Below the pieces are notes generated by a model, which was not told where the DNA came from, searched no databases, and saw nothing but the letters and a program-made list of their open reading frames with translations. Made by a program: the position numbers and the translations under genes. 64,000 nt of DNA, taken from NCBI RefSeq assembly GCF_021028975.2, contig NC_059425.1:24304001-24368000 (forward strand), given 5' to 3'. Positions 354 to 45,414 of the stretch are shown here, piece after piece (the first letter of the stretch is position 1; each line of letters begins with the position of its first letter). Source of the DNA: Sphaerodactylus townsendi. Taxonomy: Eukaryota.

Positions 354-3300
354 ATGCAGAAGTTTCATCCGCGAAGCAAACGTTGGAGAGCTCAGAGAGG
401 TGAGTAATAAAAGAGCAATGGAGTTGGGGCACTAGCATGGAGGTGGGGAAGGATTTACCCTGTTTTGTGGCAGAGATGGCCCATAATTTGGTTGAAGACC
501 AGAATACCAATCTGTTTCCAGCTCCTGTTGCTATGCCTTTATCAGAGGCATGATCTACAAGCTTTAAGGAGGTGTTTGTGCTTATCTTGAAAAATTTGTC
601 TTACTGATTTCTGCAAATCAAATTGCTATTTAAGGCAATGCACCAGGCCAGGCTGGGTTCCTGCTCCCTGGTCAGTTGGCAACTGTGGTTTAGATTACAC
701 TCAGCGCATAAAAGGTTCTATGTTTGATTTCCAGCATCCAAACACAAAATAATTCCTGACATCACAGCTGGGAAACATCTTTCTTTGAAAGTCTCACCTG
801 CAGAATGTCTGAATACCATGCAACTGCTAAAGGCACAGGAGTCCTGCCAGGAAAAGAACTGGCAACACTTTGAGATTGGCAGGAAAGGAGAGAGAAAAAT
901 TGCTTTCAAGACCAACTGTGACAGACAGCTGTTTTACTGTGCGGGAGCCCTTGTATAGATCTCAAGCGTTCAGAATATAAGCATTATCCCTGATCTGAAC
1001 CTAAATTCTGGGGCTGCCTGTTGGAGTGGCACTTGTCTGAACATAATGGCTGGAGGGAGGTTTGATCCTTTGCTCTCTATGGTATCCTGGCATTATCTGG
1101 ATTATAAGAGCGGGGTCACCAAGGCACAATAATGCCACAATTCTGTGTGAAGCAAAACAAGGCAAGAGACTGGCTCCTGTTCACAGAGAGATGGTGGAAG
1201 GCTATCAGGTCTTGCAGTGTATTAGTCCTGCCAGCTTGCTGTTTTAAAAAGTGTTGGCATTCAAAAGTGTTGACTTCTCTCTGTGATACACCTCTAAAGA
1301 TGCCAGCCACAGATGCAGGTGAAATGTTAGGAACAAGATCTACCAGACCACGGCCACACAGCCCGGAAAACTCACCACAACCTGTTGGCATTCAGTCTCT
1401 CTCCAACAACAGTGTTGCTTATTTATTTATTATTTATTATTTAAAAGTATATGTCGCCTCTCTAGAGACCAGGTGTTCTTCCAGTTGCCTTCAGCTCTAA
1501 CTAGCTGACAGTTGAGTTACAAGATTTTCTCCTGACGTACCTTTGTAGACACACACAAAAAGTTAATGGTGGGCAATGACCCTTCTCTTCAGGATACTCA
1601 AAGCAACAAAAAACAACATGACAGAACAGAGGCAGGCCAATGTTACAGCCAAGGTCGGTCACAGCCAAAGCAGCCAAGCTAGTTAGAGGCCAATAAACCA
1701 TCTGCTTGGAGCTGAGCAAGTGAGCTTCCTGCCCTCCAGCATTTCACAAATAGATCTAGGACAGTGGTGGCGAACCTTTTTGAGACCAAGTGCCCAAATT
1801 GCAACCCAAACCCCACTTATTTACCGCAAAGTGCCAACACGGCAATTTAACGCTTGAATGCTGAGGTTTTAGTTTAGAAAAACCGGTTGGCTCCTCTTCC
1901 TCAGCCCCCACCTCGGCTCGAGCAGGGCCAGCCTGCTCCCCAGCCTCCCAGCAAGTCCTCCACTCTGTGCCTCTTTAGCATCTCTGCCTCCTCTGCGCCC
2001 CCCCCCCCCCCTCGGGCAGCAGCTACCTGGAGCACAGGCACAAGGCCCGCCAGCCGAGTCCTCCCTGCTCACCACAGTGCACCACATCGTGCTCAGTGGC
2101 CCAGGCCAGCCTAGATGTGTGGGTGTGTGGGTGTGATTTTTCGCCCTCCACATGACGAACTCTGTGTGCGACTGCCCACAGGGAGGGCTCCAAGTGCCAC
2201 CTCTGGCACCCGTGCCATAGGTTCGCCATCACTAATCTAGGAGATCCACTTAGCATGCCTGTTTTCCTACCAGGAATCACTGCTTGAGTCTCCCCTCCCT
2301 CTTTTTATCATCACAACCACATTCCTGTGAGGTAGGCTAGGCTCAGAGAAAGAGTATGACAAGTGCATAGGGTTGCCAGCTCTAGATTGGGTAATAGCTT
2401 AAGGTGACCAGATGTTTAGGAGAATGGAAGAGCGTAGAGCCTGAGCATCCCGGTCAGAGGGCGGGTTAAGGCCCAGAAGGGACTTAAATGCCGCGGTATA
2501 GCCTTCTGGAGTCATACAGCCCCTTCCTGACGAAAGTGGCCATAAGGTAGTTCTGCAGGGCGTTAACTGATCTCTAACCCGGGACAATGTTCATTCCCGG
2601 TAAGACCCAGTGGGACACATCAGCGCAAAGCGTATTGCACTTTCAATCGGGACTGCTTTCAGTGCTCTAATGGCTTGATAGTTGGGGGTAAAGCTTGAAT
2701 AGCGGGGTTAAGGGAATCCCACTTTGCAATGGGGTACAGTTGTGAAAGTGGTTTGAAAACGCATTATTTTGCGTGTGCGGAAGGGGCCTCTGTCACTTGG
2801 AAATCAGTTATAATAGTGGGAGATCTCAAGTCACCACCTAGAGATTGGCGGCAACCCTACTCATGTGAGGTAATCCATCAAGCTTTCACAACAGAAAGGA
2901 GATTCAAATCTACAGTATCGCAGATCCTAGTCCGACATTCTAAACAGAACCTAGTATTTCTGTAACTTTTAATGTGCTCACTTGTACATGAAAACAATTA
3001 TGATGTCATCAAAATCCTGCTACACACCTGCTCCCACTGAAATACATGCAAAAAGGAGGGAGTAACTCTGCTTCAGATAGCACTATAACAGTGCCACGGT
3101 CTGGAAAGTCTTCCCAGAATCCTACTCAATAGGGTTTACTGCCAGAAAAGTCTTTAGTCTGGTGAAGGTAAAGATAAAGTTTGAACCAAGGACTTCTGAC
3201 CTTCTAACGTCAGACACTAAACGATGACAGCAACCTAGGGAACTCTGGAAACTGTACTTTGTAGGACTAATGCACGAAGATAATTAGTGGCAAATGAAGA

Positions 3301-5261
3301 AATAACCTTCTCTTTAATTTACAGTCGTCTTTTGTATGGCCATCCTTTCGTTGACTGTCTTGGGTTACACCACAGATGCCTCACAACACTGCCATCATAC
3401 CATGATGAATTTTCGGCTGGCAGCCAATTGCCAAGGTCAAAGTCACAATACAGTTCCCGAAGTTAACCCTTCCATTCAGGTCCTCCTGCTGAATTTTAAC
3501 CTGTTCTCCGCCATCTTGAATTCTACCTTGCCCGAAATGGATTCTCTGCAGATGTTGTCTTTTGGGAAGCAGTTGGGAGGATCCCTTTTTGTTGGAGAGA
3601 GGGCCTTTCAGAATGTGGCTGGTATCACATTCCTGGATCTTGGAGGCAACATGAACATAACACTACACCCCGCTGCTTTTGCAGGCCTGACCAAACTTGA
3701 GGTGTTACTGTTGGATGTGAATGGCTTTGATGAAAAGGTATTGGAAAGAAGATACTTCCAGGATTTGGTTTCCTTGAAGAGACTGGATCTTTCTGGAAAT
3801 CATATCCAGAGGCTAAGGCCTGATCCAACCTTTCAACAGCTTGGAAAGCTGAGCTTCCTGCAGCTGAAGCTCAACAGAATTGAGAGGATTTGTGGGGATG
3901 ACCTGCAACACCTGAAAGGACACCATCTTGCCTTGCTTGACCTGGCTTCTAACCGTTTACGCTACCACCACACCTGTACCAACCCTTTCCACAACATCAC
4001 TCTGGAAACCCTGGACATCTCTTCCAATCCATGGAATGTGATGCAAGTTGAGCAGTTTTTCACAAGCTTAAATGGCACATGGATCCAGAAGCTCAGAATG
4101 CAACACTCAGGGGCCATTGGGAGCTCATTTGGTTTCCGTAACCTGAAGGACATTTCAGTCAGGACCTTCTCTGGGCTTCATGATAGTGGCACCTTCTCTC
4201 TTTACATGTCCCATGGTTTCTTAAATGGAACTCCTCCCTTCTGTCTTCTCGGCCAGCCCTCAGATTCCACATCCTGCACGGAGGTCAATCAGATTACCAA
4301 GATCCATGATGGGGCCTTCATCAAGCTGAATCAACTGCATGTTCTTGATCTATCCAACAACCTTCTTGGGGAGCTGTACACAAAAGCATTGAGAAGTCTG
4401 AGGTCATCACCTCTCCACCATCTCATCCTGAAGTCCAACCACATTGGAATTGTTCAACAGGATGCCCTTGTGGGCCTGGACTTCTTGCAAATCCTTGACT
4501 TACAGGACAATGCTCTCTCACAAGTACCAAAGGGTAAACTCCCATCTCTACAGCGTCTGATGCTAGGGCAGAACAGGATCAAGGACGCTTGGGGCATCGA
4601 GGATCTTAGCCAGAACCTGACACACCTTGACTTGTCCTCCAATCACCTGAGTGACCTGGGGCAGCTCTGGGAGCAGCTAGGGAAGATTCCCTCTTTGCTT
4701 TTTTTGAATCTCTCAAACAACCACTTGGCAAGATGCTTCAGGATCCGGGAAGGCCCCATTCACCTCAGAGAACTGGATCTTTCTCATAACAACCTGGCAG
4801 GTGTTTGGAAAGCAGGACAGTGTATGGGCATCTTCCATCATTTAGAGAGGTTAATGGTCTTGAATCTCAGTTCCAGCAACCTCAAGGCCTTGCCTAAGGG
4901 TCTTTTCCAGGGGCTAGAGTCTCTGCAGACTTTGGACCTCTCCGAGAATCTCCTGCCATTACTTCCAGAGGAAGTATTCCTTGGCCTGCAGTCTTTGCGC
5001 ACCCTCAGCCTCCGTGGGAACCCTATGATGACCCTTACGCCATCCATATTCCAGCCATTGGTACTGTTGCAGACCTTGGACCTGCAAGATTTGACTTTGC
5101 TGTGTCACTGTGGGCTTGCTGACTTGAAGACCTGGTTGCTGACCAATAGCATGGCAGTGAAAAGATCTGCGACAGCAGGAATCCCATGCACTATTACAAC
5201 TCCATATTTCGTACAGGTCTCCTTGTCTGGATTCCTCCATCAAAACTGTGAGGTGTGGTAA
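354..5261 (+). CDS. Soluble TLR5-like LRR protein (TLR5S/TLR5L type), about 660 aa; predicted exons 354-399 and 3325-5261
   Basis: The 641-aa ORF 3336-5261 has many LxxLxLxxN repeats, TLR5-type motifs (LSFGKQL, FLDLGGN, LHPAAFAGL, IGSSFGFRNLKD, MSHGF) and a Cys-containing C-terminal cap, then a stop with no TM or TIR. A phase-1 acceptor (tttacag|3325) matches a phase-1 donor (399|gtgagt), giving the signal-peptide-like MQKFHPRSKRWRAQRVVFCMAILSLTVLGYTTDA. The upstream exon is inferred. Confidence 0.85.
1264..1382 (+). mobile_element. Penelope-like terminal-repeat fragment with a degenerate hammerhead
   Basis: Same family as 48860-49003; 12-bp TSD tgttggcattca (1252-1263, 1383-1394); core reads CTAAAGA...GAAATG. 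Confidence 0.75.
1762..2234. mobile_element. hAT-type non-autonomous DNA transposon
   Basis: TIRs cagtggtggcgaacc / ggttcgccatcacta; 8-bp TSD atctagga. Confidence 0.85.
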
Positions 5262-5311
5262 AATGACTCCTCACACTACAAATTGCAACAACTGAGTTTG
5301 CAGCTGGGGAA

Positions 5312-5317
5312 AATAAA
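5312..5317 (+). terminator. PolyA signal of the TLR5-like gene
   Basis: AATAAA about 50 nt after the stop codon. Confidence 0.55.
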
Positions 5318-5997
5318 TGTTTGAATTTGCTACGGAAGCTATGGAACATGTTTCAAAGGTAGCTTTTTGTCTGCTGCCTAGGAGATTGGCAGCTGTTTTT
5401 GATTGGGATATTGACTTTGGGTTCCATCATATATCTCCTCTTACAGGAAGGTATTTCCATCAGGAGGTATTTCCTCCCTTTTGTTAGTGGAAATTTACAG
5501 TGTGGTCCTATGGTGTCATCTTTTAGGATGAAACAAAACTGAATTGTTCCCTTTGCCATTCAGATGAAGTGTCTTACAATGCAATATTTGATTCTTTTAT
5601 GAATGTGAATCTCACATTTATGAATGTAAAGCTCAGCTGTTTTCTTGAAGCGCTTACTGGTAGAAAAACTTTAGATGAATTGTTTTATTTACAGTTAGAA
5701 AATGTACCAGCCATTCATAAATTGTAGCATTAGTAAATGTAAACTACAGTTTTGTTTTGTAATTTGGAACAGTTCCCAGGAAGTTTGCCCTTGACTAAGT
5801 GTCAGGTGGCTTCTTCCATTGGGCACCCGAGAATAAATAAGCTGCCTTACTTTGTTCTCCCACAGGCCACTGCAGCTAAAGCATATGCACAATAAACTTA
5901 ATAGAGAGATTTAGGTTGGGATGTCTCAAGAGAATTGCGTTTAAATCCTTCTCCTAATGTCAGATGAGGGTCGTGATGAAGGGGAGTTCACATGCAT

Positions 5998-9763: not shown

Positions 9764-12700
9764 ATGGATCGACACAAGATCCCACGCACCAAAGAACTGG
9801 AATTTGGGGGTATTCTGGGTAAGAACAAAATCTTAGGGTAGGCCAAAGCTGGGAGGCGAACAAAACAGACAAAGAGCGCCAGTGTCTTCTGGGTTTTTTG
9901 GGCCCCTTCAAACCTGGCTGTCTTTTTTGTTTCAGGGGCTGCCTTCCTCCTCATCCTCTTGCCTGCCACTGTCTTTGCCCTGCTGCTGACTTGCAGGACA
10001 GAGCAGGCCAGTCTCCTGAATTTCCCCTTGCCTTTGCCCCTGCTCCATTCCCTGTGGGACCCCAAAGACTTTGCGCTGGTTTTGGCCTGGATAGGCCTGC
10101 AGGCTCTGCTGTATATGCTACCTTTGGGAAAGGTAAGAAGATTCACACCTTTATGTTGCTTAGTCTGGGACGTGTAGGTGCCGTTGCCTGGCTTTGGAAG
10201 GAGGCCGGGCTGATGCCTGAACATAATGGGGAGGGGGTGTTTGATGCAAGTCACTTGACATGTAGCCTACTTTGCAGGGCTGTTTGTGCTAAGTTCTTGA
10301 GAGGGAACTCTTTGAGGGCCTGCCAGGAGGAGATATTCTGCAAGACAGTGCATGGTTGAGGCAGTGCAGTCATACCAGCTACCTGGCCTTCTCTTCTCTC
10401 TCCCTTTCCCCCCTTCTTTTCCTTCCCTTTTCCCTTTCCCATCCCTTCCCTCTTCCTACCTCCTCCCCATTTCCCCCTTTCTTTCACTTTCTTGTTCTGC
10501 TTTTCCTTCTTTGTCCTTTGCCCCTTCCCTTTCTTTCATCAAATAGACTGAAATAAAGGGTAGATGAACTACAGTGATATAGTTGGATTTATTAAATGAG
10601 ATCCCCATTGGAAGTTAGATGAGGAACGATGGGGTGCCAATATTCTGTATACCTTGAAGGGCATATTGACTGAGATGAGTATTTTTAATCATTTTACTAT
10701 TACATTAATTCATGTTGGTATAGTGAATTGTGTATACTGTATGTATGTTATAAGCTGCCCTGAGCCCGGCCTTTGGCAGGAGTAGGCTGGGTTAAAAATG
10801 AAAATAAAGAAAAATAAAATAAAAGAGATGATGTATTGTCGAAGGCTTTCACGGCCGGAATCACTGAGGTGCTGTGTGGTTTCCGGGCTGTATGGCCGTG
10901 TTCTAGCAGCATTCTCTCCTGAAGTTTCGCCTGCATCTGTGGCTGGCATCTTCAGAGGATCTGTGGCTGGCATCTTCAGAGGATCCTCTGAAGATGCCAG
11001 CCACAGATGCAGGTGAAACGTCAGGAGAGAATGCTGCTAGAACATGGCCATACAGCCCGGAAACCACACAGCATCCCAAAAGAGATGATGTTAATGATTC
11101 TGTTCTACAGAAGTAGCCATACTGCTGAAACAGCCCCCCTAATAAAACTCTCCTTTCTTTATCTTGTATATAATTTTTACAGGTCACAGAAGGGACTGTT
11201 CTTCGAGACAAGAGCCGGCTCCAGTACCGTGTGAATGGTGAGTACCCATGGGAAACAGAGCTGATGCTGCAGCTTGTGAGACAAGTTATATGATTCAAGT
11301 GGTGTCTGGAGGTCTCCTGCTATTACCACTCTTTCAGGTGATAGAGATCAGTTAACCTGGAAAATATGGCCACTTTGGAAGGGGAACTTTATGGCATATA
11401 TCCCGACGGAAGTCCCTCCCTAAACCCTGCTCTTCTCAGGCTCCACCCACAAAATCTTGAGGTATTCCCAACCTGGAGCTGGCAACCTTATGTATAATTC
11501 AAGGAGGGGGGGATCAGTTCTGGAGAGAAGCAATATCTAGTGGCTAAAGCAGTGTTTCACAAAAAAGCAGTGTTTCACAAAAAATAGCCATCGAGTAGCT
11601 TGAAACAAATTTACCAGTTTCAGACTAAAAGCACACTGTTGCATTATTTCCAAAGAGCAGCTCCTTAATTAAAAGCTTGGATGAACTGAGATGTGTTGAT
11701 GCCTAAAAGAAAATCACATAAGCACCAGGTGAACCTCAAGGGAAGAGCATTCAAGCCAGGTGCCACTACTGAAAAAGCCCTGTTTCAGGTTGCCATCTGC
11801 CTCACCTCTGAAGGCAGGGGCACTACCAACTCCAGCTTGGTAAATTCCTGGAGATTTGGGGACAGTGCTTAGGAAAGGGCCTCAGTGACTGAGGCACTGT
11901 GTTGTTTATATGTCACCTGGAGGCAAATATCACTTTTATGCCCAAAAATGAAATGTTTGATTTTTTTTTTCAAAAACAGTTAATATTGTTTTCCTATGCC
12001 CCAGTGATTATGGATGCTGGATCAGCACTCTGTCCATACCTGTATCCCAACTAAGGAAGTCCTTTCAGCATTTCATGCTTGGAACTCCCTTATGACCATA
12101 ACAAGGACCACTGTCTATCCCAGGGATGGCGAACCTTTTTGAGACCAAGTGCCCAAACTGTAACCCAAAACCCACTTAGTTATCGCAAAGTGCCAACATG
12201 GCAATTTAACCTGAATACTGAGGTTTTGGTTTAGAAAAAACGGTTGGCTCAGAGGTGCACATTACTCGGGAGTAAGCTTGGTGAAGCAACCATGCAATGC
12301 TTCGAATGGGTGAATCATGATCCTAAGAGTGTTTACTCAGAAGAAACCCCATTGCCAGCAATCGAGCTTACTCCCAGGTAAAGGATTGTGCCCAGGCCAG
12401 CCTAGATGTGTGTGTGGGGATGTGGGGGTGTGATTCCCGCCCCCATGAACTGTGTGCACGTGTGCCCACAGAAAGGGCTCTGAGTGCCACCTCTGGCACC
12501 CGTGCCATAGGTTCGCCACCGCTGGTCTATCCCTTTCCCACTATTATACCTTGCTACAGATATAATTGTTTGCCATGTTGAAGAATTTGCCTTGTTCTGA
12601 GTCAGATCACTGGTCTATCAAAGATCACCCTTGTCTGTTTGAACTGGCAGCAAAAGGCAGCATCATGGGTTCGCATCTGTGCCTGAGGCAGCCTCCGGAC

Positions 12701-15700
12701 GGTCAGTTCTGCTTCTCACTAAACCCCCTTTTCCCCTTGGCAGGGCTCCATGCCATGTGGATCACAGCACTGGTGGTGGGGGTCGGCATGGCTGCAGGGC
12801 TGCGCCTCAGTTACATACATGACCATTTATTGCAACTTGCCTTCTCTGCATCTGTTATTGCTTTTGGGCTCAGCGTCCTCCTCTACATCAAAGCCCTGCT
12901 TGCTCCTGGGACCGCGCTGGCTCCAGGTGGGAATTCAGGTGAGCTCTACGTTCCACAGCATCTCATGTGTCAGTTCAAGGGACAGAAGTGTCCACATGAA
13001 CTCCAACTGGAAACACATACTTCTCTGCATCGCACTCAGCAAACAATCGCCTGCTGGTGATCCCTGGCCCAAAAAAGGTCCAGCTGACCTCAGCCAAGGC
13101 CAGGGCATTTTCAGCCTTGGACACACAGCCTGGTGGAACTCTCTGTCAGATGAGAACTCAAGGGCAGTAGAATGCAAAGGAACCAGAGAGGTGTAGTCAT
13201 TAAGAGCAGGTGGTCTCTAACGTGGAGAACTAGGTTTGATTCCCCACTCCTTCATGTGAACAGCAGAGTCCGATCTGGTGAACTGGATTTGTTTCCTAAC
13301 TCTTCCACATGAAGCCTGCTGAGTGACCTTGGGCTAGTCACAATTCTCTCTCTTCAGCCCCGCCTACCTCACAAGGTGTCTATTGAAGGGAGAGGAAGGG
13401 AAGGAGTTTGTAAGCTGCTTTAAAACTCCTTAGAGTTGAGAAAGGTGGGGTCTAAAACGAAACTCTTCTTTGCCATTTCTATGCAGAGTCAAATATACAC
13501 GGGAAAAGAACAGAGCAACTCTTTCACTATAGCAATGTTTTCTTGCTCTGCAGACTTAATGCGATTCATTGGAATCTTAATGCGATTCATTGCATTAATG
13601 CGATTCACTGCAGATTTAATGCGATTCATTGGAAATGACATCTCCATTCTCCGGTGTGCCCAAATGCAGAATAACTGAATTTGCTAATGAATTTCTCATT
13701 TTGTGGTTTCACATTGGGGCCTCTCTTCTGAAGCGCATGTGTGCTTGATTTTGATACACAGAGTCTTGGAGGGCTGCAGCAGGATTTCCTGGGAGCCTGA
13801 AATGTTCTCCTTGTTTTTGAGAAGAATCCCCTTCTGCTCACATTTTCTCATTCCATGGGGACAACAAAAAAAAACCCTGCCAAGATTGCTAAATTAGAAG
13901 TGCACTGAAGCATTGTTGATCACCAGGGTTTTTTCTGCCTTTCCCTCCCCAGGAAACCCCATTTATGACTTCTTCATGGGCCATGAGCTGAACCCCCGCG
14001 TTGGTACCTTTGACCTCAAGTTTTTCTGTGAGCTGCGCCCAGGTCTCCTTGGCTGGGTAGGTATCTCTGTCCTGGAGGTGGTAGAAGAAAAAGCGGGAGG
14101 GCTTATATAACGAAGGGATGATTCACCTATTGCAGGGGTCTGCAACCTGCGGCTCTCCAGATGTTCATGGACTACAAATCCCATCAAGCCCTGCCCTTGC
14201 ATGGCCAATGCTGGCGGATGCTGGCATGATAGAATTGATAGATTATGATCCATGGTTGCTGAGAAACCGCCAGGTGAACCTCGAACTGCTGTGCAGCCTC
14301 CCCTTGTCCCATGTGGCTACCCTCAGGACTTTGGACCAGGAATCCACTGCCCTCAGGACTTTGGACCAGGAATCCTGCCCCCACCCCAGGATATATGGCC
14401 CATGCAGAAAGGGCCTTAGTTTTGATGGTGCAAAACTGAAAAGTGTGTAACTTGGGTTTTAAAAAAACCTCCACTGCTTTGAAATAATGAAAAACACGAT
14501 CTCTTTGCTAAAGCCTTTGGGGTGTTAATTGAACAATGCAATAGTGCACTGAAGTGTGTTCTTGTTAAATTGCCAACAGTTGCTTTACTTAAATTTGCTG
14601 TGAAGGGTCCTAGGTTCAAGGAATAGCAATCTGGTGATGATGGGAGGGTTGTAGCAGAAAATAAATGGATGAGGAGCGATCAGGGCAGTGACCTAAAAAC
14701 ACCTTATGGTTGAAGCTTTTCTCATTTCTGTTGCATTTTAGGCCCTTATCAACATGGGTATGTTAGTGAAGGAGACGGAGCTGAGGGGTAGTCCTTCCTT
14801 GGCCATGATTCTTGTTAATGGCTTCCAGCTTCTCTATGTAGTAGACTCCTTTTGGAATGAGGTAGGTTCAATGCAATGAGAGATCCATACTGGGCTGGAA
14901 AAGTTTGGTGAAAGTTCATTTGTGGTAATTTCTGTCTCCTCATCCCCCCCAGCCCAATTATTTGTGAAAACATAAAGTTTGAAGGCCTAGGCTGCACTCT
15001 CATTAGTTTCAGAAAAGCCAGGGATTTTACTGGGAGATTGATTGACTGATCAATGGATTATGAGATTTTTATACCCCCCCCTTTTCACGCTCAGGCCGGT
15101 TTCCCACCTCCAATATAACAATATATAATACAATAAATAGTTTAAAACTTACAATGTAAAATATAAGTTTAAAATTGAAATAGCATTGGACTTCTGCAGG
15201 CAATTTGTACATCTATACTTGGTCCCTCTTCCTATTATAAGCTTTAATATTTATATTGGATGAGACTCCAGTAGAGAGGTTAATGAAGAGAAAAGAATAG
15301 GTAAGGTGGAGAAGAAAGAAAGGAAGAAATGTAAGGGGGGGAAGGGAAGAGAAAGGGGGCCCAATGACAGTCATACTGTAGTTGCCTCAACCGTACACCT
15401 GATGGAACAGCTCTGCCTTACAAGCCCTGTGGAATTGCATTAAATCCTACAGGGCTCTGGTCTCCCCACCCAGCATTCCAACAGGTAGGGCCAGGGAGAA
15501 AAAGTCCCCCGACCTTGGAGGAATGAGCAGTCATTGCAAGGACTATCTACTTTGATTGACAACAGCTTCTGGGCAGAAGTCTTTTGTTAACTGGAGATGC
15601 CCCGGATTGAACCTGGGCCCTTCTGAACAGAAAGCAAGTGATTTTCCACTGAGCCACAGTTCCACTCAACATTCCTTGTCTCTTTCTCAAGGAGGCCATC

Positions 15701-18700
15701 CTCACCACCATGGACATAGTTCATGAAGGTTTCGGCTTCATGCTGGCTTTTGGGGACCTGACTTGGGTGCCCTTCCTGTACAGTCTCCAGTCCTACTTCC
15801 TGGTCACTCATCCACAGAAGCTTAGCCTGCCTATGGCTGGAGGCATAATCCTGTTAAATGGTAAGTTGGACTATGAAGACAGAAAGTCCCAGAACTAACA
15901 ATGCCCAAGCATCCAACCAGCAAGTAACAATGCCCAAGCATACAACCAAGCATCCAATCTTGATCCTCCTTGATCTGAGATTGCAAATGCCTTAGCAGAC
16001 CAGGTGCTCAGGAGCAGCAGCAGCCGCAGAAGGCCATTGCTTTCACATACTGCATGTGAGCTCCCAAAGGCACCTGGTGGGCCACTGTGAGTAGCAGAGT
16101 GCTGGACTAGATGGACTCTGGTCTGATCCGGCAGGCTCGCTCTTATATTCTTAAGTGGAGAATAAATATCCCATGGGTCTCTTTTTAGGAACTTTGCCAA
16201 TAGCAGCCATCAAAAGATTCTGACCAATAGACTGCATGCTCCATGATTATATTATTGGATTATAATGAAAACAAGACTACTGCCCAATTAAAGGCCTCTT
16301 TGTCTACTCATATGTTTTAATCACTCAGTTGATGGGAAGGCAGGTTGGTCAAATGGCTGTTAGGCATGATGTCCAGAGGTGGGATCCAATCAGTTCTCAC
16401 CACTTCTCTAGAAGTGGTTACTAATTTTTTCTGAGTGCCGAGAAGGTGTTACTAAAGCAACCTCCCTGCCCAGTAGGGACTGGAGGTGCGGGTGTGCGGC
16501 GGCCCCACTGTTTGAATCCCACCACCATCGGAACCTGTTATTAAAATTTTTGGATCCCGCCACTGATGATGTCTGAATGAAACCTCCATGTTCAAAAGCA
16601 GTGTACCTTTAAATACCAGTTGCAGGGGTGGGTGCAATAGCAAGGGAAGGAGGCGCAGGGTGGCATGGACATTGAGGAGAACTTGCAACTCATATCTGAA
16701 TGAGATGTCCAGATCGAACCTGCAAAATCCGCAATGTGTGAAGCAGTATTGGTTACCGAAAGAGCTGGGTAACCAAAACAAATTTTAAATTGTACACCAT
16801 TAAAAGTAATATTTTGTGAGCTGATCAAAGTACGTAGGCTTCAATATATTTAAATACTTCGCATAGGACCATATTTACCCAAAGATTACTGTGGAATTCA
16901 CATAATCCCCTCCCTTTAATTACTGCATATACTTGTGACTTGTACGCAAATGCAAGATGACCCCTTTATTCTCGATGGTCCTTGTGCGGAAAAAGTTTTC
17001 CTTTTGGAGGAATGGGGGTTTATTTCTGCTGCTGAGGGGCCATTTTTGCCCCTCTTTACAAAAACATTCCCTCAGGATATTCATGTCTGTTCCCACTTTA
17101 CCCCTCTCCTCCTGCTCTAGGCCTCGGCTACACTATCTTTCGCAGTGCTAACTCCCAGAAGAACACTTTCCGCCGGAATCCTGCTGACCCCAAAGTAGCT
17201 GGTTTGTAACTCTGACAGCTGGTTTCTGTTTATTGTTTGCCAGGTGCAGGACAGAACACAGCACGCTTTCCTAAGAGACAACTTGTCTGCCCCTCATGCA
17301 GTGTAATAAAACTTTAATATAGCATGTAATAGAGGAATGAGAAAGCCAGTGAAGTGAAGTGGTTAAGAGTGGAAGACTCTCATCTGGAGAACTGGGTTTG
17401 ATTCCCCACTCCTCCACATGAAGCCTGCTGGGTGACCTTGGGCCAGTCAAGTTCTCTCAGAACTCATTCAACTGCATGGAGGTAGGCAATTGTAAACCAC
17501 CTCTGAATGGCTCTCACCTTGAAAACCCTATGGGGTCACCATACGTTAGCTCCGTTGACAGCATTTCCCACTACTAATAGAGGAGAGTGCTGATCTGTTA
17601 CATACAGGTAACTGTCTTTAGTTTGACAGTTATTCAGCTCAGAGGACAAGTGGTGAATTGCCATTTGTCTGTGCCTTTGAACGAAATATGCACTATTTCC
17701 TGAAGTTGGCTAATGAGAAATGTACGACTTCAAAGCCAAGTTTCTCAGGTCCCTGATTCTTTTAAACAGAGGCAGCAGGATCAAAGCTGGAATCTTCTGC
17801 ATTAAAAGTGTGCTGCAGGGCTTAAAGTATTGGACTCAGACGTGGGAGATTCAGGTTCAAATCCCCACGCAGCCATGGAAGCTTGCTAAGTGACTCTGGC
17901 CCAGCCAGACACTGTCAGCCTAACCTAGCTCACAGGGTTGTTATGCAGATACATTTGGGGAGGGAAGAAAAATGCTTTAAGCTGTTCTGGGTCTCCATTG
18001 AGGAGAAAAGTCTGCATCTGAGCTATGGCCCCTTTCCTAAAAGAGTATTAAGGCCTTTTGCTCTGGAATTCTCAATTGTGGAAGTCTCACTTTCAAAAGG
18101 ATATAGACAGATTAAGATAATTGGGGCCTGAAGACCAGGCCCTATGAGGAAAAGCTGAGGGATTTGGGAAGGTTCAGTCTGGAAAAGAGAAGATTGAAGG
18201 GGAACATGATTACTATCTTTAAGTATTTGAACAGCTGTCACTTAGAGGAGGGCAGGGAGCTGTTCCTGTTGGCTGCAGAGAATAGGAATTGCAATGATGG
18301 GTATAAATTCTGGGTGGAAAGGGACTGGTTCAATATTAGGGGAAATTATTTACAGTAAGAATAGCTCAGCAGTGGAATTGGCTGCTTAGGAAGGTGGTGA
18401 GCTGCCCCTCACTGGCAGTCTTCAAGCAGTAGCTGGACGAGGGATCTGCAACCTGTGGCTCTGGACTACAATTCCCATCAGCCCCTGCCACCATGACCAA
18501 TTGGCTACGGTGGCGGGGGCTGATGGGAACTGTAGTACATGAATATCTGGAGAGCCACAGGTTGCAGACCCCTGAGCTGGACAAACATTCATCAGGGATG
18601 CTTTAGGCTGGTCTTGCATTGAGCAGGGGGTTGGACTAGATGGCCTGTATGGCCCCTTCTAACTCTGTAATTCTGTGCTAAGATTTTTGGTGAAATGATT

Positions 18701-20458
18701 CTAAAATGTTAGCATCTATAAACGTGCTTTATGCTGAGTTGAAGCAATCCTATTGCAGACAGTTAGGATTATTTGACTGGTCTCCTGGCTGGCTAGATAT
18801 TTGAAAAGCTTCTGTTTTTGTGTTGGGAGTGGAGGCTGTTGGATTTGTGGTCATGCACAATTTCAGTGAAACCCCGGCCAAGTTTGGAAAGTGTCAATAC
18901 TTTTCTGTGTTCCAGGGCTCAGAACCATCCCCACAGCCACCGGGCGGCGCCTGCTGGTGTCAGGGTGGTGGGGGTTTGTGCGGCATCCCAACTATTTGGG
19001 GGACCTCATCATGGCTTTTTCTTGGTCCCTGCCCTGTGGTAAGTGGAAATCAGAAAGCTCTAGAAATCTGCTAAAGCAGGGTAATCACTGCGGTGTAATG
19101 GACCCAGGTTCTAACTCCACTGTGCCATAGAAGCTTGGTGGACGACCTTGGCCCAGCTGCATGCTCTCAGCCTAACCTAAAAATAAACAAGACCTCACAG
19201 GGTTGTTGTTTCTGAGGATCAAATGGAGGAGGGTGGAACATAAGTATAATCTGCCTTAGATCCCTTCTCCAGTTCCTTTTTTAACAATCCTAAAGAGTGT
19301 TACTCCATCTAAGCCAGGGGTAGGGAACCTGCGGCTCTCCAGATGTTCAGGAACTACAATTCCCATCAGCCCCTACCAGCATGGCCAATGGTTCTCCTGA
19401 ACATCTGGAGAGCCGCAGGTTCCCTACCCCTGATCTAAGCCCATTAATTTCAATTGAACGGTTAATAATTGTACCAAAAGTCGGGTATGTCTAAATTTAT
19501 ACCCTATTTGTACTCTTGAGAGTCATCGTGGTGTAGTGGTTAAGAGCAGGTGCACTCTAATCTGGAGAACCGGGTTTGATTCCCCACTCTGCCACTTGAG
19601 CTGTGGAGGCTTATGTGGAGAACTAGATTAGCTTGTGCACTCCAACACACACCAGCTTCCCTGTCTTCCTCCTCTCATTTATTTATTTTATTCTTTACAT
19701 TTGTAATCCGCCCTCCCCCACAGGGCTCAGGGTGGCAAACAACCAACAATGATAATAAAACAATAAAACAACTTCAGCCCCCCGATCTAAAAAAAAAAAT
19801 GCTGTTGCTGGGAATTGAGGACCCTTTGGAATGTCACGAGGGGGAGAGTCTGCAGCAGAAGGCAAGAGTAGGTAGAAATTTCCAATTTAATCTGGATCTA
19901 ACCTATTGTTAATTGTTCCCAATAGCTTTTTAAAAATTCCTGAGTGCTCAGACATACTTCTGACAGGTTGCAATTTAACATGTTGTTTATCTAGGAATGT
20001 CATTCTTAGAGCCTTTCCCTTTCCTTATTACATTTTATATCCCACCCTGTTATACTAGAGCCATGGTGGCGAACCTTTGGCACTCCAGATGTAATGGACT
20101 ACAATTCCCAGCAGCCCCTGGCCATGCTGGCAGGGGCTGCTGGGAATTGTAGTCCATTACATGCTGGCAGAGAACTACTAAAATATGATCAGTATCCTCA
20201 GATGGAACCGCCACCATAATCTAAATAATGGTGGAGATCCCACCAGTTGTTCCTATCTTCTCTCTCTACTTTCAGTGCAACATAACTTTTCTCAGAGTGT
20301 CGGCTACATCATGCCCTTATTTCTACATCCTCTACTTTACTGTGCTTCTGGTCCACCGGGAGGCCAGGGACGAGCACCAGTGCCTGAGGAAATATGGCCT
20401 GGCCTGGCAGGAGTATTGCCGCAGAGTCCCTTACCGGATCTTCCCATACCTCTACTGA
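9764..20458 (+). CDS. TM7SF2: Delta(14)-sterol reductase TM7SF2, about 419 aa; coding exons 9764-9818, 9936-10132, 11183-11237, 12744-12938, 13953-14056, 14742-14861, 15692-15860, 17121-17201, 18916-19038, ~20297-20458
   Basis: ERG4/ERG24 motifs [96 protein letters not shown] sites have consistent phases, there is no N-terminal Tudor domain (so not LBR), and the gene is next to ZNHIT2. The start of the last exon has apparent indel noise. Confidence 0.95.
10390..10540. repeat. Polypyrimidine low-complexity tract
   Basis: Almost pure C/T for about 150 nt in a TM7SF2 intron. Confidence 0.7.
10917..10960 (-). ncRNA. Minimal hammerhead ribozyme copy with altered stem III
   Basis: Reverse complement reads atcctCTGAAGAtgcc...ggcGAAActtcagga; ACGT is changed to ACTT. 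Confidence 0.55.
10984..11026 (+). ncRNA. Minimal type I hammerhead ribozyme
   Basis: TCCT-CTGAAGA-T-GCC[loop]GGT-GAAA-CG-TC-AGGA: stem I TCCT/AGGA, core CUGANGA and GAAA, palindromic ACGU stem III, GUC cleavage site. Confidence 0.75.
12121..12524. mobile_element. hAT-type non-autonomous DNA transposon (same family as 1762-2234)
   Basis: TIRs cagggatggcgaacc / ggttcgccaccgctg; 8-bp TSD gtctatcc. Confidence 0.85.
13188..13470 (+). mobile_element. tRNA-derived squamate SINE (Squam3-like)
   Basis: A/B-box-like head ggtgtagtcattaagagc...ggtttgattcccc; body gtgaccttgggctagtcac...cctacctcacaaggtg; ctctt tail. Confidence 0.7.
13555..13632. repeat. Short tandem repeat, about 4 copies of ttaatgcgattca(t/c)tg
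   Basis: Directly visible units of about 18-21 bp. Confidence 0.85.
14320..14376. repeat. Tandem duplication with 30-bp period
   Basis: ccctcaggactttggaccaggaatcc occurs twice. Confidence 0.85.
15955..16153 (+). mobile_element. CR1 LINE 3' end fragment
   Basis: Reverse complement of the 3' end of the CR1 copy at 43051-43250. Confidence 0.8.
16374..16565. mobile_element. hAT-type MITE
   Basis: TIRs cagaggtgggatcc / ggatcccgccactg; 8-bp TSD atgatgtc. Confidence 0.85.
17340..17570 (+). mobile_element. tRNA-derived SINE
   Basis: agtggttaagagt...ggtttgattccccactcctccacatgaagcctgctgggtgaccttggg. Confidence 0.65.
18125..18677 (+). mobile_element. CR1 3' fragment interrupted by a hAT MITE (~18440-18573)
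   Basis: Translates to [21 protein letters not shown] (CR1 ORF2 C-terminus); ends ctaactctgtaattctgtg. Confidence 0.8.
19315..19432. mobile_element. hAT-type MITE
   Basis: Long TIRs caggggtagggaacctgcggctctccagatgttcagga; 8-bp TSD atctaagc. Confidence 0.9.
19519..19660 (+). mobile_element. tRNA-derived SINE, 5' part
   Basis: tggtgtagtggttaagagc (A box) and ggtttgattcccc (B box). Confidence 0.7.
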
Positions 20459-22730: not shown

Positions 22731-24010
22731 TCAATCCAATTCTTCTATCAAGGTCTTTTTTTGGGGGGAGGCACTTTGGCCCCCCACATCTTCTCCAGCT
22801 CCTGGGTGACTGCTCCCACCTCCTTGATCGCATCCAGGTGGGCCTTGTATTCTCTCTGCACCTCCAAAGCCAGGAGGGTGAGCTCCCCTTCATTGTCGTT
22901 CACCCAGGACAAAAGAAAGTCGCACTTTTTCTTTGCAGAGAACAGCCTGGGTTGATCCTGGGCAGGCACCCGCCTCTTCCCCTTGCTCAGCAGCCGGGAT
23001 AGATGGGCGAGGGCGGCTAAGCTGTACCCCTTTTGCTTGGCTTGGCATTCTCCCATTAAGATCTGGGCCACTGCTGCCATCACCCCGGCGTTCCCCAGGA
23101 GGCATTCGGGGTATCGCCCGCGCGGTAACTTAGCCTGCAAGAGCCGCTTGTAAGGCCTCCCGCCGTGAGATCCGAAGCCCTGCCCTTTAGGGCCCCAGAG
23201 ACTGAGAGGGTCCAGAACCGTTTCACAAAACTCAGGCAGCAGCTGGGCCTCTTCCACGTCGCCGTTGTAAAGCGCCAGGGAATAGGCATAGGCGCACAGC
23301 ACGTTGGGCACCTGGAAGCGCACCAGGGGTGAGACGGGCAAACGGGTCAAGCTGCTCAGAGGAGGGATGGTAGTGGGCACCGGAGGCGCTGAGGTCGAGG
23401 CACCCGCCGGCTGTGCAGGGTTTGGACCACTTGCAGGGATCTCTTGCAAATGCACCGGAGTCTGAGCGTGTTGCACGGCTGCAGTGCCCTGGGAGGATTC
23501 CGGTTGTTGCAAAGGGGCGTGGAGGGTCCCGGGCCCTGTAGGGGCCTCCCCCAATTCTTGAATCAGCATTGCACCCCGGTCGCTCCCCGTCCACCATGGC
23601 TTCCAAAGGGGCAGGAGAGACGAGATCTCCCCACTGTCCAGCAATCGCTGGAAACGCTTTCTTTGCTCCAGGCTCAGCTGCTCCCACAGCTCCTCGAGTT
23701 CTGTCTGCTCCAAACTGGGGTCGAGGCCTAGCTGGAGATCCGCATCCCCGGGCTCGCGCAACTCCTGCAGCCTAAGAAGGGCCTCCCTCAAGCGGCGTTG
23801 CGAGGCCGGGTCCTCCCGCTGACCCTGGAGCAGGAGTTGCAACTCCCGGCGCTGAAAGTCCTGGGCGCAGGAGCCGTGTTCGCGGTAGCAAGGCACGGAG
23901 CAAAAAAAACGTAGAGTGGCAGCGTGCTGGGCAGAGTGTGAGGGGACTACCTTAGCCAGGCACAGCCCGCAGCAAGGGTCATCACCGGGATTCGAACCGG
24001 CGGCTTCCAT
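22731..24010 (-). CDS. ZNHIT2: Zinc finger HIT domain-containing protein 2 (single coding exon)
   Basis: ATG at 24010 (MEAAGSNPGDDPCCGLC...FCSVPCYREHGSCAQDF); motifs LLPLWKPWW, SPLVRFQVPNVLCAYAYSLALYNGD, KKCDFLLSWVN. Removing one A from a homopolymer restores the C-terminus KKTLIEELD* with the stop at 22731. Located between TM7SF2 and FAU. Confidence 0.92.
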
Positions 24011-24314
24011 GCTCCGTAACAGACGGCCGGGAGAGTTCGGGGATTTCCGCCAATTGTCGGTTAAGTCCGTCTCTGAAAACGATGAATTGGTAATTTCCGT
24101 CTTGCCTTCGTTTTTACCCGGACTGAGTGCCGGTGCGTTTGTCAGGCCTAGTGGTGAATCACAGCGGGCTAGTTGAAGGCTAATTGAGGCCGGTGCCCTG
24201 GCAGGGAACCTGGGACGCTCGAGTGTCGTTCGGCGCAAACTTTGGCAGTTGTTAATCGGTCGCTTTGTTGTGGCGTCATTTTGAGGCAGAACGCGCTACA
24301 AAGCTCACTTCCAA

Positions 24315-34600: not shown

Positions 34601-36589
34601 TTTTGGAGACAAAACATGAGAAGAAATTTGTCTAACTTGCTCTCTTCTCTGCATCCACTAAACTGTTTGGGAGGGGGGGTTGCCAAGAGGCAGACAAAAA
34701 AAAATGTTTCCCTTCAATCTGGCAGCCCTTAAGCAAAAGTGAGATGGTTTCTTCTCTCTGCCCAGCCCCTGCAAGGGCTCCTTAGCCATTCATTCACAAA
34801 GCAATCTTGCTGCTGGGCTCTGAGGAGTTTTGCCACCATCGAAGATTTGGTCTGGTCCAGGGGTAGGGAACCTGCGGCTCTCCAGATGTTCAGGAACTAC
34901 AATTCCCATCAGCCCCTACCAGCGGCATGACAGACAGAGGTGGTCCTAGTATCTCAGGCTGCAAGTCCCAGACCTCTGATCAAAAGCATGAAAGTCACCA
35001 GAGAAAACTCTAAGGTGTCTATCACGGGGGGACCCAGGCCCTTGAATTTTTAGTGTCCCCAGGAGCCAATCTGCCTTTGGCGACCTGGTTTTCTGTACAG
35101 ATATCCTTTCCATGTCACGACTCTCCACACTGCAGCCTTGATATATTGCGTGACGGCATTCAATGGGAATTTTTGGGTTGTTTTGTGGAAGACCCAGATG
35201 ACACGTAAAGCCAGCAGAAGACGCAGAAAAGGTTTACAAGCTCAGAAATACATAAAATATATGTATAATATTGTATAATAGCAACATATCTAAATATACA
35301 CAATTTCTTAGGGGTCATTGTTAGGACATTAGGAATGTATATAGAAGGATGAGTTTTTAAACCACATACCTTCTATTTACTATTTGAGAAAGGGGCTCAG
35401 CTGAGCAAACCATGAGATGCTGGTCATTTGAATTCTGCAAACAGCAGCAGGCCTTTTTTTGCTTTGATGAGTAAAAATGGGCACGGGGGAAGGGAACTTC
35501 TTCCTGCATTAGAGCCATCTACAGCCCCATCCTAAGACCCTGATGCTTGTGGAGCTATGAACTGGTGTCCAAGGCCTGCCCAACTCAGGACAATTTTCTG
35601 AAACATGTTGCCAGGGTTCACACAGCCCAGCAGCAGCACCAGTATCCTTGGAAACACCAGGAATGTCCACCACCACAAGGTGACTTCCCTGTGACAGGAA
35701 GAGAGAAGCAGAGCATGCTGGGAAGGCCAGCCTCCTGCCCACCACCACCCACAGAAGGCCAAACTCTCCCTCCAGCGCTGGGGTTTGAGTGGGAGGAGCA
35801 TCTTTTTGCCAGGCAAATGACTTACAGACTCTTAAGCAACACAATAGAAACGCAAGGGAGGCCTGGACTCAGGTTCTACTAGGAAGGCCCAAGTAAGGAT
35901 TTTGGTTTATGCTCCCCCTCATCTGTCAGGAGTGCTTTGATTGTTCCTGCATTGCAGGGGGTTGGACTTGATGGCCCTTGTGATCTCTGCCAACTCTATG
36001 ATTCTATGATCTACCATCTCCCTTATGTGGCATTGCCAATATCCAGGTAGGACCTGGAGGTAGCCTGGAATTACAATGCATACATTTCCATGTAGAAAGT
36101 AGCTCATTTGGGAGGTGGCCTTGAAACCTTTGTACCCTGCCCTCCCCTGGTTCCATCCCAAATTTCCAACCTGAAGTGTGTAATCTTGTCTATTCATTGC
36201 CACCTTACCTCCTGTTCATCCCAGCAGCCGTTGTGCCCCATTCCACGTACAAACCACACCCCTGACAAAATCCCACTCTGTGCCAGTGTCAGATTGACAC
36301 GTGCCTTATAATAGCAGGAGACCACTGTGGATTTGGGTGGGCATATCTCCTGACACATCCAAAGCCCCTAGGACAGGCCCTAAAACTAAAGTAACATCTT
36401 TAAAGAGCCAGAAATACAAGCCCCAAGAAGCACTTCTGGTTTGATCCACTGTGCATCAGCATCACCTCTCTCTTTTGTTTTCCTTGTGTCTCTCTGCCCC
36501 ACATCTGCCTTACATCTACTCTTTTTTCATAGCCATTTGAGAAAGGCATCTTTTCAGAGCTGAAGACGACTGAGTAGAAGAAGAAGGAG

Positions 36590-39500
36590 ATGGAAGAACA
36601 GGACCCAGAAGGAGTGGGACGAGGCAAGAGAGCAAGGAAAGCCCCCCGGCCCATCCAAGCTGGGAGTGGTCTTGAATTCTGGGAGAGAGGTGTGCCGGAT
36701 ATCTGGAATCAAGAACCCCTGAACGTGGAAGTACTTTGCAGACGCTTCCGGCAGTTCTGCTACCATGATGCTGATGTTCCCCGAGAAGTTTGCAGTCAGC
36801 TTCATGGACTTTGCAAACACTGGCTGAAGCCAGAGAGGCACTCCAAGAAGCAGATCCTGGACCTGGTGATCCTGGAGCAGTTCCTGACCATCCTGCCCCA
36901 AGAAATGCAGTACTGGGTTAGAGGATGCAGTCCAGAGACCAGTTCCCAAGCGGTGGCCCTGGCAGAGGGTTTCCTCCTGAGTCAAGCTGAGGAGAAGAGG
37001 CAGGCAGAACAGGTGAGGGCTTTTCTTTCCACTTCTTCTAGGGAATTTCTCATCCCTCCAGATAATTACCCAGGGTTGAAGGAAAACCCTACTAGGTCTG
37101 CTAATAGATAGGTGCATAGTCTGGGAATGGGGCAGGATGCATTCCTCAGTGTCTTTCATTCTGTCTCTTACCTGTCTCCCTCACTGTTACTTCAGAGATG
37201 TGGTCCATCCATGAAGATCAAAACTACATTCTCTGAGAGGGAAAGAGCTCAGTTGGAGGAAGGGCAGCATGTCCACGACCAGGAACTTGCCCAAAATGCC
37301 CTCTCACGCGGTAAGGACTCATTGTTCCAGGACGGGATTGAAACACCCAGTGAATTTGATGGGTAGAGAGTTCTGGTCAGGAAAAAAGTGAAATGCTTCT
37401 TCACACAACTGGTGACACTTGCTGTTCAGCAGTTGTGATGCGCATAAAAGGGGATTAGACAAATTCATGGAAGCAGTTCCACACATGGGTTACAATATTT
37501 ACATTGCTCCTTTTTAATTAGAGGGACTCAAGGTGGCTCAGCAGAAAAATCTCAGCCAAGCTCTTCAGTCTTGTGAATAAGCAGAGCCTCTCCCACAACG
37601 TACCAGAAAGTTTTACAAGTCTTTTTGAGTGTACATAGGGCAAAGATTTCACAGCCCTGGGAACGGAGTGCATGAAGAATGATTTACACAGCAAACAATA
37701 GGAAGTGGAAACTAATACTTTTTCTTCCATTTTTCCCTCCCTCACAGGCAGTGAAGAGAGAGTGTTGATCCCTTCTCTTTGTGGAGGTGTGAAAACAGCT
37801 GCGGCACCTCCAGCCAAGGTAGGAGAGATGAGCAGGGGACAGCCTGGTTCCCCATCTCTTTCTCAGGCAAGCTTTTCTCCTGCAGTTGGTGCTGAAGGGC
37901 AAGAGGCTGTAAATGCTACTCCTGATAATAATGTGAGCTCTCCATAATGCAGCCTCCCAGAGTACCCTCTTTCAGCATCCTATCTCTTCCTGATATGTCC
38001 TCTGACCAGCGAATCTGCTTTTTCTTACAGCCTCTGGTTTCCTTTGGGGAGGTGGCCGTGTATTTCAGAGAGGCAGAATGGGCATTACTGGATCCAGACC
38101 AAAGAGCTCTCTACAAGAGCGTCATGCTGGAGAACTTCAAGAGTGTGGCCTCTCTGGGTAAGGAGCTTTCATAGGCACACATTTCTGCCTTTGGGATGAG
38201 GCATGAATCAAAATCTTGAACAGCAATGCATTGTGTTGAGGCTTGTTCCATAACTTGCTCCCTTTTGGAGGCCTCGAGATGGCAGCGAAAGCAATACTTA
38301 GCATGGCCAAATAGAGTGACCCAAGCCACAAGGTTTGCCCAGGACAACTGAGGGCAGTGTTGTGGCCATCACCCAAGCCAGAGAGTGTGTCCTGACCGGA
38401 AGCCAATGGGGGACTCTAAGGCCCTCAGGAGGACTCTGAAAGGAGCCACATCCTAATTTCTCAGTGAACAACCATAAGAAAACATTTATCCTCTGGGAGT
38501 AGAGTGATGCCCTCTGACTGTGGTCTGAGAGGGGAGAAAAGGGTCTTAATTCCCGACTTCTTCACATGAGCTGGGTGATCTTGGGCCAATCCCAGTTCTC
38601 TTAGAACTCTCTCAGCCCCACCTACCTCAGAAGGTGCCTGTTGTGGGGAGGGAAAGGAATATGATTTGTAAGCTACCTTGAGGCTCATTAGGGTTCAGGA
38701 AAACAGGGTATAAAAATCTTCTCTTCTACTTGTCCTCTTTAATCATCAATAACAGAGAGTCAAAAGAGCTGTGTGGCAAGTCAAATGTGAATGGTGGAGG
38801 AAGGATTTCTTGCCACTTTGCCCTCTGGGATAAGGTGTAACCAGCAGATCAGTTGTGAGGAAAGCAATTCCGATAAAGAAAACATTCACCCATAAATGAG
38901 CAGTTCCTAATGGGTGGTGCCTAGTGCTGATTGGACTTGCCTAGTGCTGATTGGACCTTTTTCTTTCTTCCAGAAGCACAAGTAGAGGAGATAGTTGGAG
39001 TATTCCAGGGATTCTGTGTGGAAAAAGCCAAGGATCAAGATTCAAAAGGAAAGTTGGAGGATGGAGACAGGCCACAGAGTCAGGAGGAAAGCCATGCAGA
39101 CCAGAGAAGGGAGAAGCCCATTCTGTCCCTCGGAGGAGGCTTTTGTGAAGTCCCAGTCCAAGAAGTAAGATCAACCACATCAAACAAGAATGAAGCCATC
39201 CATGCTAACCAGGGAATCCTCTCCAGGCAGAATGAAAATGTGGCCTTTAGAAAGACCTTCAGTAAGAACATCAGTCTTATTTCCGAGAGACAAATTCCCT
39301 CTGGAGAGAAACTGTACGATTGTATGAAGTGCGCAAAGACCTTCAGTCAGAAATCAGATCTTTCTTCACATATAAGAATTCACTCAGGTGAGGAAGGGTA
39401 TAAATAGTTAGTTTGCAAACCAAGCCATTCTAATTCAGCAGATTTTAATGTCCTTTTAAATTGTATATTAATATACACTTTAATGTACTTCAGCAAAAAA

Positions 39501-45008: not shown

Positions 45009-45414
45009 TCCTCATTGTATGCATGCAGAATGTTCCATGTTCATTCTTTGGGATCTCCAATGAAGACTGACCTCAAACTGAAACCCTGGAGAGTCACTGT
45101 AAATCAGAAGATACTGGCCTTGGTAGACAAATGGGAGACAGTTTGTGGGAGCAAAACCGAGGCAGTAAAGACACAGTAAAAACCAGAAGAGCAAGACAGA
45201 AAAACTCCAACCCACCCACCTACCCGCCTATCTTACCTTTGGGAGATCAGGGAGATTTTTTCACATTTCTAATTTTGCTCCATCCCATTAAAATAGTCCC
45301 AATATTGCCTGCCCCCCACCCCCGGCTGCGGGAAACTGTCATCAATTTCATGTCGCGTCACTTTTGTCTGTCCTTTTGCAAGACACCTTTTCACTCTTGG
45401 GTTCCTTGGAGTGG

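Follow-up and report, generated by a model that had tools for sequence, protein, structure and literature searches.

A Toll-like receptor 5 (TLR5) ectodomain encoded with neither a transmembrane (TM) segment nor a TIR domain may be the remnant of a membrane receptor or the product of a gene in its own right. This question is raised by positions 354 to 5,317 of a 64,000-nucleotide stretch of the Sphaerodactylus townsendi genome (contig NC_059425.1; hereafter the window), which an original prediction, made from the letters alone, had read as a dedicated gene for a secreted flagellin sensor. We find that the gene is almost certainly the gecko orthologue of TLR5L, a TIR-less member of the TLR5 family. 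TLR5L is already known, yet databases hide the gene under the name TLR5. New here, as indicated by sequence comparison, are TLR5L orthologues in lungfish, bichirs and sturgeons, an apparently older origin of the gene, and a gene neighbourhood that looks paralogous to that of membrane TLR5.

The forward-strand open reading frame at 3318-5261 runs for 647 codons from stop to stop, and together with a short upstream exon it forms a two-exon gene with a predicted product of 660 residues (Table 1). The 46-base first exon has a GTGAGT donor after position 399 and joins in frame to the acceptor at 3324; its peptide is similar to the N-termini of the Heteronotia, Gekko, Lacerta and Rhineura orthologues, which upholds the proposed gene start at 354. 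The intron includes a part (1201-2800) with very deep repeat coverage. Pfam recovers only leucine-rich repeat (LRR) families in the protein and no TIR domain, and among PDB sequences it is closest to human TLR5 (E 1e-74 over residues 39-638) and to zebrafish TLR5b. The full TLR5-type LRR ectodomain that had been proposed is confirmed, with its insertion loop (IGSSFGFRNLKD) and cysteine cap, followed by an AATAAA signal. The cap cysteines, C590, C592, C618 and C638 (numbered from the ATG at 3336), are retained in 93-100% of 55 orthologues. They are followed by VW and a TAA stop (5259-5261), and 51 of the 55 orthologues terminate no more than six residues past the last cysteine column. Further AATAAA motifs lie at 5832 and 5891. 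The structure model of the Euleptes orthologue has a mean pLDDT of 85.8, with a confident solenoid and the LRR9 loop least so (pLDDT 64), and a fold search with this model returned zebrafish TLR5 as the top three matches (root-mean-square deviation 2.2-2.8 Å). The ectodomain carries eight N-glycosylation sequons, and the hydrophobic leader predicts that the protein is very probably secreted.

The homologue search scored 8000 candidates of 350-1120 residues. The best 58 protein matches, two of them named 'Toll-like receptor 5L', are all without a Pfam TIR domain, and their sources are squamates, tuatara, turtles, amphibians, lungfish, bichir, sturgeons and paddlefish. Among the 8000 scored candidates we found no TLR5L from a bird, crocodilian, mammal, teleost, gar or shark, which does not by itself prove absence. 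The gecko protein carries 18 of 19 TLR5L marker residues, which were derived from tetrapod TLR5L and defined without the window protein. In squamates the gene has been tabulated before: Table S2 of PMC6946030 lists TLR5L of Gekko japonicus and Anolis but has no entry for two crocodilians, and we infer that its Gekko and Anolis mRNA accessions correspond to the proteins compared here. In the same paper, TLR5L is a gene of amphibians and reptiles whose product has neither a TM nor an intracellular domain; the paper gives its ligand as unknown and proposes an amphibian origin. The examined part of its supplement has no Polypterus, Acipenser or Protopterus entry, and the examined part of PMC7058155 has nothing on TLR5L. 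Gekko kuhli has two proteins in the TLR5L cluster, both assigned to a contig of equal length and possibly a local duplicate, and Table S2 of PMC6946030 lists a second coelacanth (Latimeria) TLR5-family entry, AFYH01284233.1, that could be TLR5L.

The claim that no TM or TIR exon precedes TM7SF2, the gene downstream, also holds. In tblastn with three TLR5 TM-TIR tails against the window and 40 kb upstream, the best match has an E value of only 0.066; the same queries reach 1e-139 at the membrane TLR5 locus. Outside the leader, hydropathy over 19 residues peaks at 1.43, versus 2.1-3.3 in the TM segments of 24 out of 24 membrane TLR5 proteins, and a glycosylphosphatidylinositol (GPI) or TM tail is ruled out by the lack of a hydrophobic tail (1.11 over the final 60 residues). 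An intact membrane TLR5 lies on the same contig (C1, 62.46 Mb), 38 Mb from TLR5L. Within one species the two proteins share ~40% identity (36-43% over LRRNT-LRR10, about 31-46% by region). The intact TLR5 elsewhere and the negative tblastn rule out a truncated membrane TLR5 or hidden TM-TIR exons; together with the low identity and a separate clade, the intact TLR5 supports the view of a dedicated gene. A non-TLR5 LRR family is excluded by the PDB matches, the tree and the fold matches.

To place the gene in the family, we used a quick ectodomain tree of 50 rows, and a careful tree with approximately unbiased (AU) tests on 27 of those rows under LG+G4. TLR5L forms one clade that includes lungfish, bichir and sturgeon sequences (support 100 with 50 rows, 100/100 with 27). 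The phylogeny that the original prediction had called for groups the gecko protein with amphibian and reptile TLR5L (100/100), apart from TLR5 and from TLR5S, the soluble form of teleosts. Its orthology lies with the TLR5L of amphibians and reptiles and not with teleost TLR5S: the AU test rejects orthology, or a joint clade, with acanthomorph TLR5S (p 3e-5). When the tree is rooted on lamprey, TLR5L falls outside the group of shark and bony-vertebrate membrane TLR5, within which TLR5S is nested (89; 96/95), with the caveats that several rows have an odd amino-acid composition and that the root depends on long lamprey branches. A duplication within tetrapods fails the AU test (p 3e-50), whereas one that followed the divergence of sharks is still compatible with the data (p 0.059); the best trees instead place sharks with bony-vertebrate TLR5. 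Of the 19 marker residues, 12-14 are present in five fish TLR5L, 1-3 in three jawed-vertebrate membrane TLR5 and seven in two lamprey proteins, so some of the markers are ancestral. The reedfish has both TLR5L and the membrane form. These comparisons make it likely that TLR5L is far older than its published amphibian origin. A great age was already hinted at by PMC8455134, which allows 'TLR5/5SL (possibly both)' in the jawed-vertebrate ancestor. PMC12179096 puts TLR5L as the sister of TLR5S, for which the present trees give no support, and the incomplete TLR5-like sequences described in several sharks (bioRxiv 10.64898/2026.03.23.713620) may or may not be TLR5L.

Other TIR-less forms were seen elsewhere in the trees. 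The TIR-less TLR5 of the mudminnow (Umbra) groups with the membrane TLR5 of pike, apart from other TLR5S, and the TIR-less forms of lampreys cluster with the membrane TLR5 of lampreys, a grouping that root placement alone could explain. The sequences suggest that the short forms of mudminnow and lampreys had several origins, or else reflect gene conversion. A review (PMC13457159) states that lamprey lacks the TLR5 family.

The surroundings of the gene also bear on its origin. VPS51 lies upstream (Pfam match at C1:24.287 Mb) and TM7SF2 downstream; the last VPS51 exon presumably lies ~6 kb ahead of TLR5L exon 1. The same location is indicated by the model of the skink Lerista, which fuses TLR5L to TM7SF2, and by that of the caecilian Rhinatrema, in which TLR5L is named a VPS51 isoform; both models are likely annotation artefacts of tight linkage, with read-through as a possibility. 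On the human map TLR5 is near LBR and CAPN2, and TM7SF2 is near CAPN1. Six families picked from this map were tested in the gecko genome, so that the result is a confirmed prediction and not a blind test. The block around TLR5L is paralogous to the block around membrane TLR5. Distances from TLR5L are 0.01 Mb for TM7SF2, 0.16 Mb for B56, 0.42 Mb for a DMPK-coil kinase, 1.44 Mb for RapGAP, 1.47 Mb for pecanex and 2.70 Mb for a calpain whose best match is calpain-1. Distances from membrane TLR5 are 0.30 Mb for calpains (best matches calpain-8 and calpain-2), 1.22 Mb for LBR, 2.41 Mb for a DMPK-coil kinase, 6.47 Mb for B56 and ~24 Mb for pecanex and RapGAP. This LBR has a tudor domain and is closer to TM7SF2 than the family member on C2 is. 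Three of the six families (TM7SF2/LBR, CAPN1/CAPN2+CAPN8 and the DMPK-coil kinases) lie within 3 Mb of both genes and the other three do not, an arrangement shared by approximately 0.7% of the genome outside the TLR5L region. Five of the six families are found again on C2:120-170 Mb, and B56 exon identities did not resolve the pairing of the genes. A lone ERG4/ERG24 family match with an internal stop, possibly a pseudogene fragment, lies at C7:1158215-1158469 on the reverse strand.

These paralogous blocks are attributed to vertebrate genome duplications. Because TLR5L lies in a block paralogous to that of membrane TLR5, we think it likely that TLR5L and TLR5 are twins produced by an early genome duplication in vertebrates, and that TLR5L would have lost the TM and TIR parts before ray-finned and lobe-finned fishes split. 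Among the openly available papers searched, none deals with TLR5L synteny or claims that it is an ohnologue.

Within the ectodomain one stretch of the window is probably wrong. Residues 298-317 are not LRR-like, and the LRR10 letters of the orthologues sit in the other two frames of the window. At 4227-4287 all four DNA runs compared, from three organisms, disagree with the window: each shows six single-base indels, net zero, and 3-4 substitutions. Runs X3, X4 and X6 hold the whole gene in one contig with no indel elsewhere, and run X1 and one RNA read also show the indel at 4227. An assembly error is most likely, because all four runs differ by net-zero indels and restore the usual frame; a real frameshift allele is disfavoured by the same runs. 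The public protein XP_048360393.1 (Sphaerodactylus townsendi 'toll-like receptor 5') is identical to the whole query protein and includes the scrambled LRR10, and its first four residues fit an alternative exon at 2587-2599 in repeat-rich DNA, not the one at 354. The public model likely inherits the error, with ~20 wrong residues adjoining the binding loop, which matters to anyone expressing the gecko protein.

The LRR9 loop is the part of the protein that points to a function. In zebrafish TLR5 the hot-spot arginine of flagellin sits in a pocket made by this loop and is held partly by main-chain atoms (PMC5247705). The positions of G270, H275 and N277 (zebrafish numbering) are occupied by G, F and N in 55 of 55 TLR5L orthologues, F being the second F of the loop. 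An 11-residue window over the loop ranks 26th of 610 in conservation in TLR5L (0.80 versus a median of 0.64) and 47th of 610 in 35 membrane TLR5. The LRR12-13 letters S340, N342, G345, N368 and G371 are kept in at least 90% of TLR5L and of membrane TLR5, and LRR12/13 is the secondary dimerisation surface (PMC4938411). Frog TLR5L goes up in the spleen after bacterial infection (PMC12179096). Judged by these conserved positions, TLR5L probably binds flagellin. In the proposed mechanism, the leader would send TLR5L through the secretory route, as its sequons and cysteine caps suggest, and nothing would hold it at the membrane; the LRR9 pocket would, like that of TLR5, receive the conserved arginine in the D1 domain of flagellin; and TLR5L would buffer or clear free flagellin, dampening membrane TLR5 by competition. 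Buffering is the default expectation because the pocket site is the one that membrane TLR5 needs and TLR5L has no TIR domain. According to section 15 of a review (PMC13457159), trout TLR5S competes for flagellin and soluble forms are negative regulators. Given binding, we favour dampening only slightly over amplifying, which is nearly as plausible. We lean towards the reading as a whole, that of a likely secreted TLR5L predicted to bind flagellin through the LRR9 loop and to dampen membrane TLR5. We found no paper testing the ligand or the effect of TLR5L, and the conserved loop makes binding directly testable.

Several observations weigh against this reading. The gecko protein is identical to zebrafish TLR5 at only four of nine pocket residues (G270, S271, S272 and N277), the remaining five varying among membrane TLR5 as well, and TLR5S comes from a separately derived gene, so results on TLR5S may not carry over. 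Between the window and close runs, the ratios of amino-acid-changing to silent variants are 16:6 in X3, 6:4 in X2, 5:2 in the listed part of X1 and 19:10 pooled (X4 and X6 were left out), and pN/pS ranges from 0.47 to 1.11 across runs; these counts are small and combine polymorphism with possible errors of the window. For X3 and for the pooled runs they are higher than expected (p 0.0006-0.012) from the dN/dS of 0.236 given for reptile TLR5L in Table 1 of PMC6946030; for X2 and X1 they are not. In RNA from a relative (three runs, 6-24% of each covered, tissue unstated), the coding exon has a depth of 0-0.46 and no splice joint was seen; the first TM7SF2 exon is about equally low in the same runs. 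Decay or relaxed selection in this gecko lineage, with the scrambled stretch as a real damaged allele, would account for the pN/pS near 1 against X3, for the near absence of RNA reads and for the frame-shifted LRR10, and the gene seems lost in crocodilians and birds. We consider this very improbable, as the usual frame is restored in every DNA run, with X3, X4 and X6 as single contigs free of other indels, no stop occurs among the listed variants of X1-X3, and the protein branch is short. The dN/dS near 1 that the original prediction had set against a working gene is touched by the upper pN/pS values; these contrast with a branch since the Euleptes split of 0.053 for TLR5L versus 0.098 for the membrane TLR5 ectodomain (50-row tree).

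A secreted TLR5L might also amplify the response, as an acute-phase carrier handing flagellin to membrane TLR5, in a mixed complex or as an opsonin. Trout TLR5S is said, by the title of a report, to be an acute-phase protein with flagellin-recognition activity, and reportedly has an amplifying effect. The loop conservation and the retained LRR12-13 surface fit this role equally, which we nevertheless hold to be unlikely: a mixed complex would bring one TIR domain only, the flagellin site is identical to that used by membrane TLR5 (PMC5247705), and the review already cited describes soluble forms as negative regulators (PMC13457159). Similarly doubtful is a secreted LRR protein with a different ligand or partner, its loop conserved because folding or the binding of a host protein requires it. 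TLR5L and TLR5 have been apart for more than 400 million years, share only 36-43% identity over LRRNT-LRR10 within a species, and differ by eleven positions near-invariant in TLR5L alone. The ligand is also listed as unknown (PMC6946030). Against this, conservation of the protruding loop equals or exceeds that in membrane TLR5, and a surface insertion with no ligand would be expected to drift. As to origin, TLR5L could stem from local or segmental copying of the TLR5 ectodomain and owe nothing to whole-genome duplication, as proposed for amphibians (PMC6946030). Both loci are on one gecko contig, the duplication after the shark split is not rejected, and the scored candidates include no shark orthologue. 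The rejection of a tetrapod origin, the three families close to both genes and the recurrence of five on C2 make such a copy an unlikely source.

With genome duplication as the preferred origin, a fuller history can be proposed, which to us seems evenly poised between right and wrong. The twin of TLR5 would have become a secreted flagellin receptor in early jawed vertebrates, been kept for more than 400 million years in bichirs, sturgeons, lungfish, amphibians, turtles and squamates, and been lost in teleosts, archosaurs and mammals; teleosts would then have derived a new soluble TLR5 from their membrane gene, as would, independently, lampreys and mudminnow. The wider range and the paralogous neighbourhood would shift the origin of TLR5L from amphibians to early vertebrates, and the same evidence would show that soluble TLR5 arose several times. 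If true, vertebrates inherited a soluble flagellin buffer as an ancestral part of their immunity and re-invented it repeatedly, and mammals are without one.

Table 1. Features of the TLR5L gene and of the rest of the window (positions in the window)
Feature	Position	Strand	Remarks
Exon 1, coding part	354..399	+	ATG and basic n-region of the predicted signal peptide; ends at GT donor
Intron	400..3324	+	Repeat-rich; GTGAGT donor, pyrimidine-rich ACAG acceptor
Exon 2, coding part	3325..5261	+	Hydrophobic leader, LRRNT, TLR5-type LRR solenoid, LRRCT, stop
Hydrophobic core, predicted signal peptide	3325..3381	+	Kyte-Doolittle 1.64 over 19 residues
LRR9 loop IGSSFGFRNLKD	4116..4151	+	Counterpart of the TLR5 flagellin hot-spot pocket
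Likely mis-assembled stretch	4227..4287	+	Six indels, net zero; residues 298-317 (LRR10) scrambled
C-terminal cysteine cap, four Cys	5103..5249	+	Two residues (VW), then stop
AATAAA, candidate polyadenylation signal	5312..5317	+	51 bases past the stop
TM7SF2, neighbouring gene	9938..20455	+	First to last matched exon; closest paralogue LBR 1.2 Mb from membrane TLR5
515-codon open frame	22751-24295	-	No Pfam match; presumably ZNHIT2, by gene order
SCAN domain and C2H2 zinc-finger array	36578-40883	+	Zinc-finger gene within an otherwise conserved gene run
Reverse transcriptase fragment, two open frames	43240-45040	-	Looks like a CR1-type retroelement

Among known systems, the closest is TLR5L as published for amphibians and reptiles (PMC6946030), with which the gecko gene shares the lack of TM and TIR, a length of ~650 aa and membership in a clade of its own, where it nests among gecko members. 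The architecture is the same; the range found here is wider, taking in lungfish, bichirs, sturgeons and paddlefish, and the origin apparently predates amphibians. Teleost TLR5S resembles TLR5L as a TIR-less TLR5 ectodomain with the LRR9 loop and likely does the same kind of job. Unlike TLR5L, it nests inside teleost membrane TLR5, and it carries 0-1 of the 19 marker residues (two sequences). Membrane TLR5 (human 3j0a; zebrafish TLR5b-flagellin 3v47 and 5gy2) shares the fold, the caps and the LRR9 insertion with TLR5L, whereas it has TM and TIR parts, signals, and occupies a separate locus.

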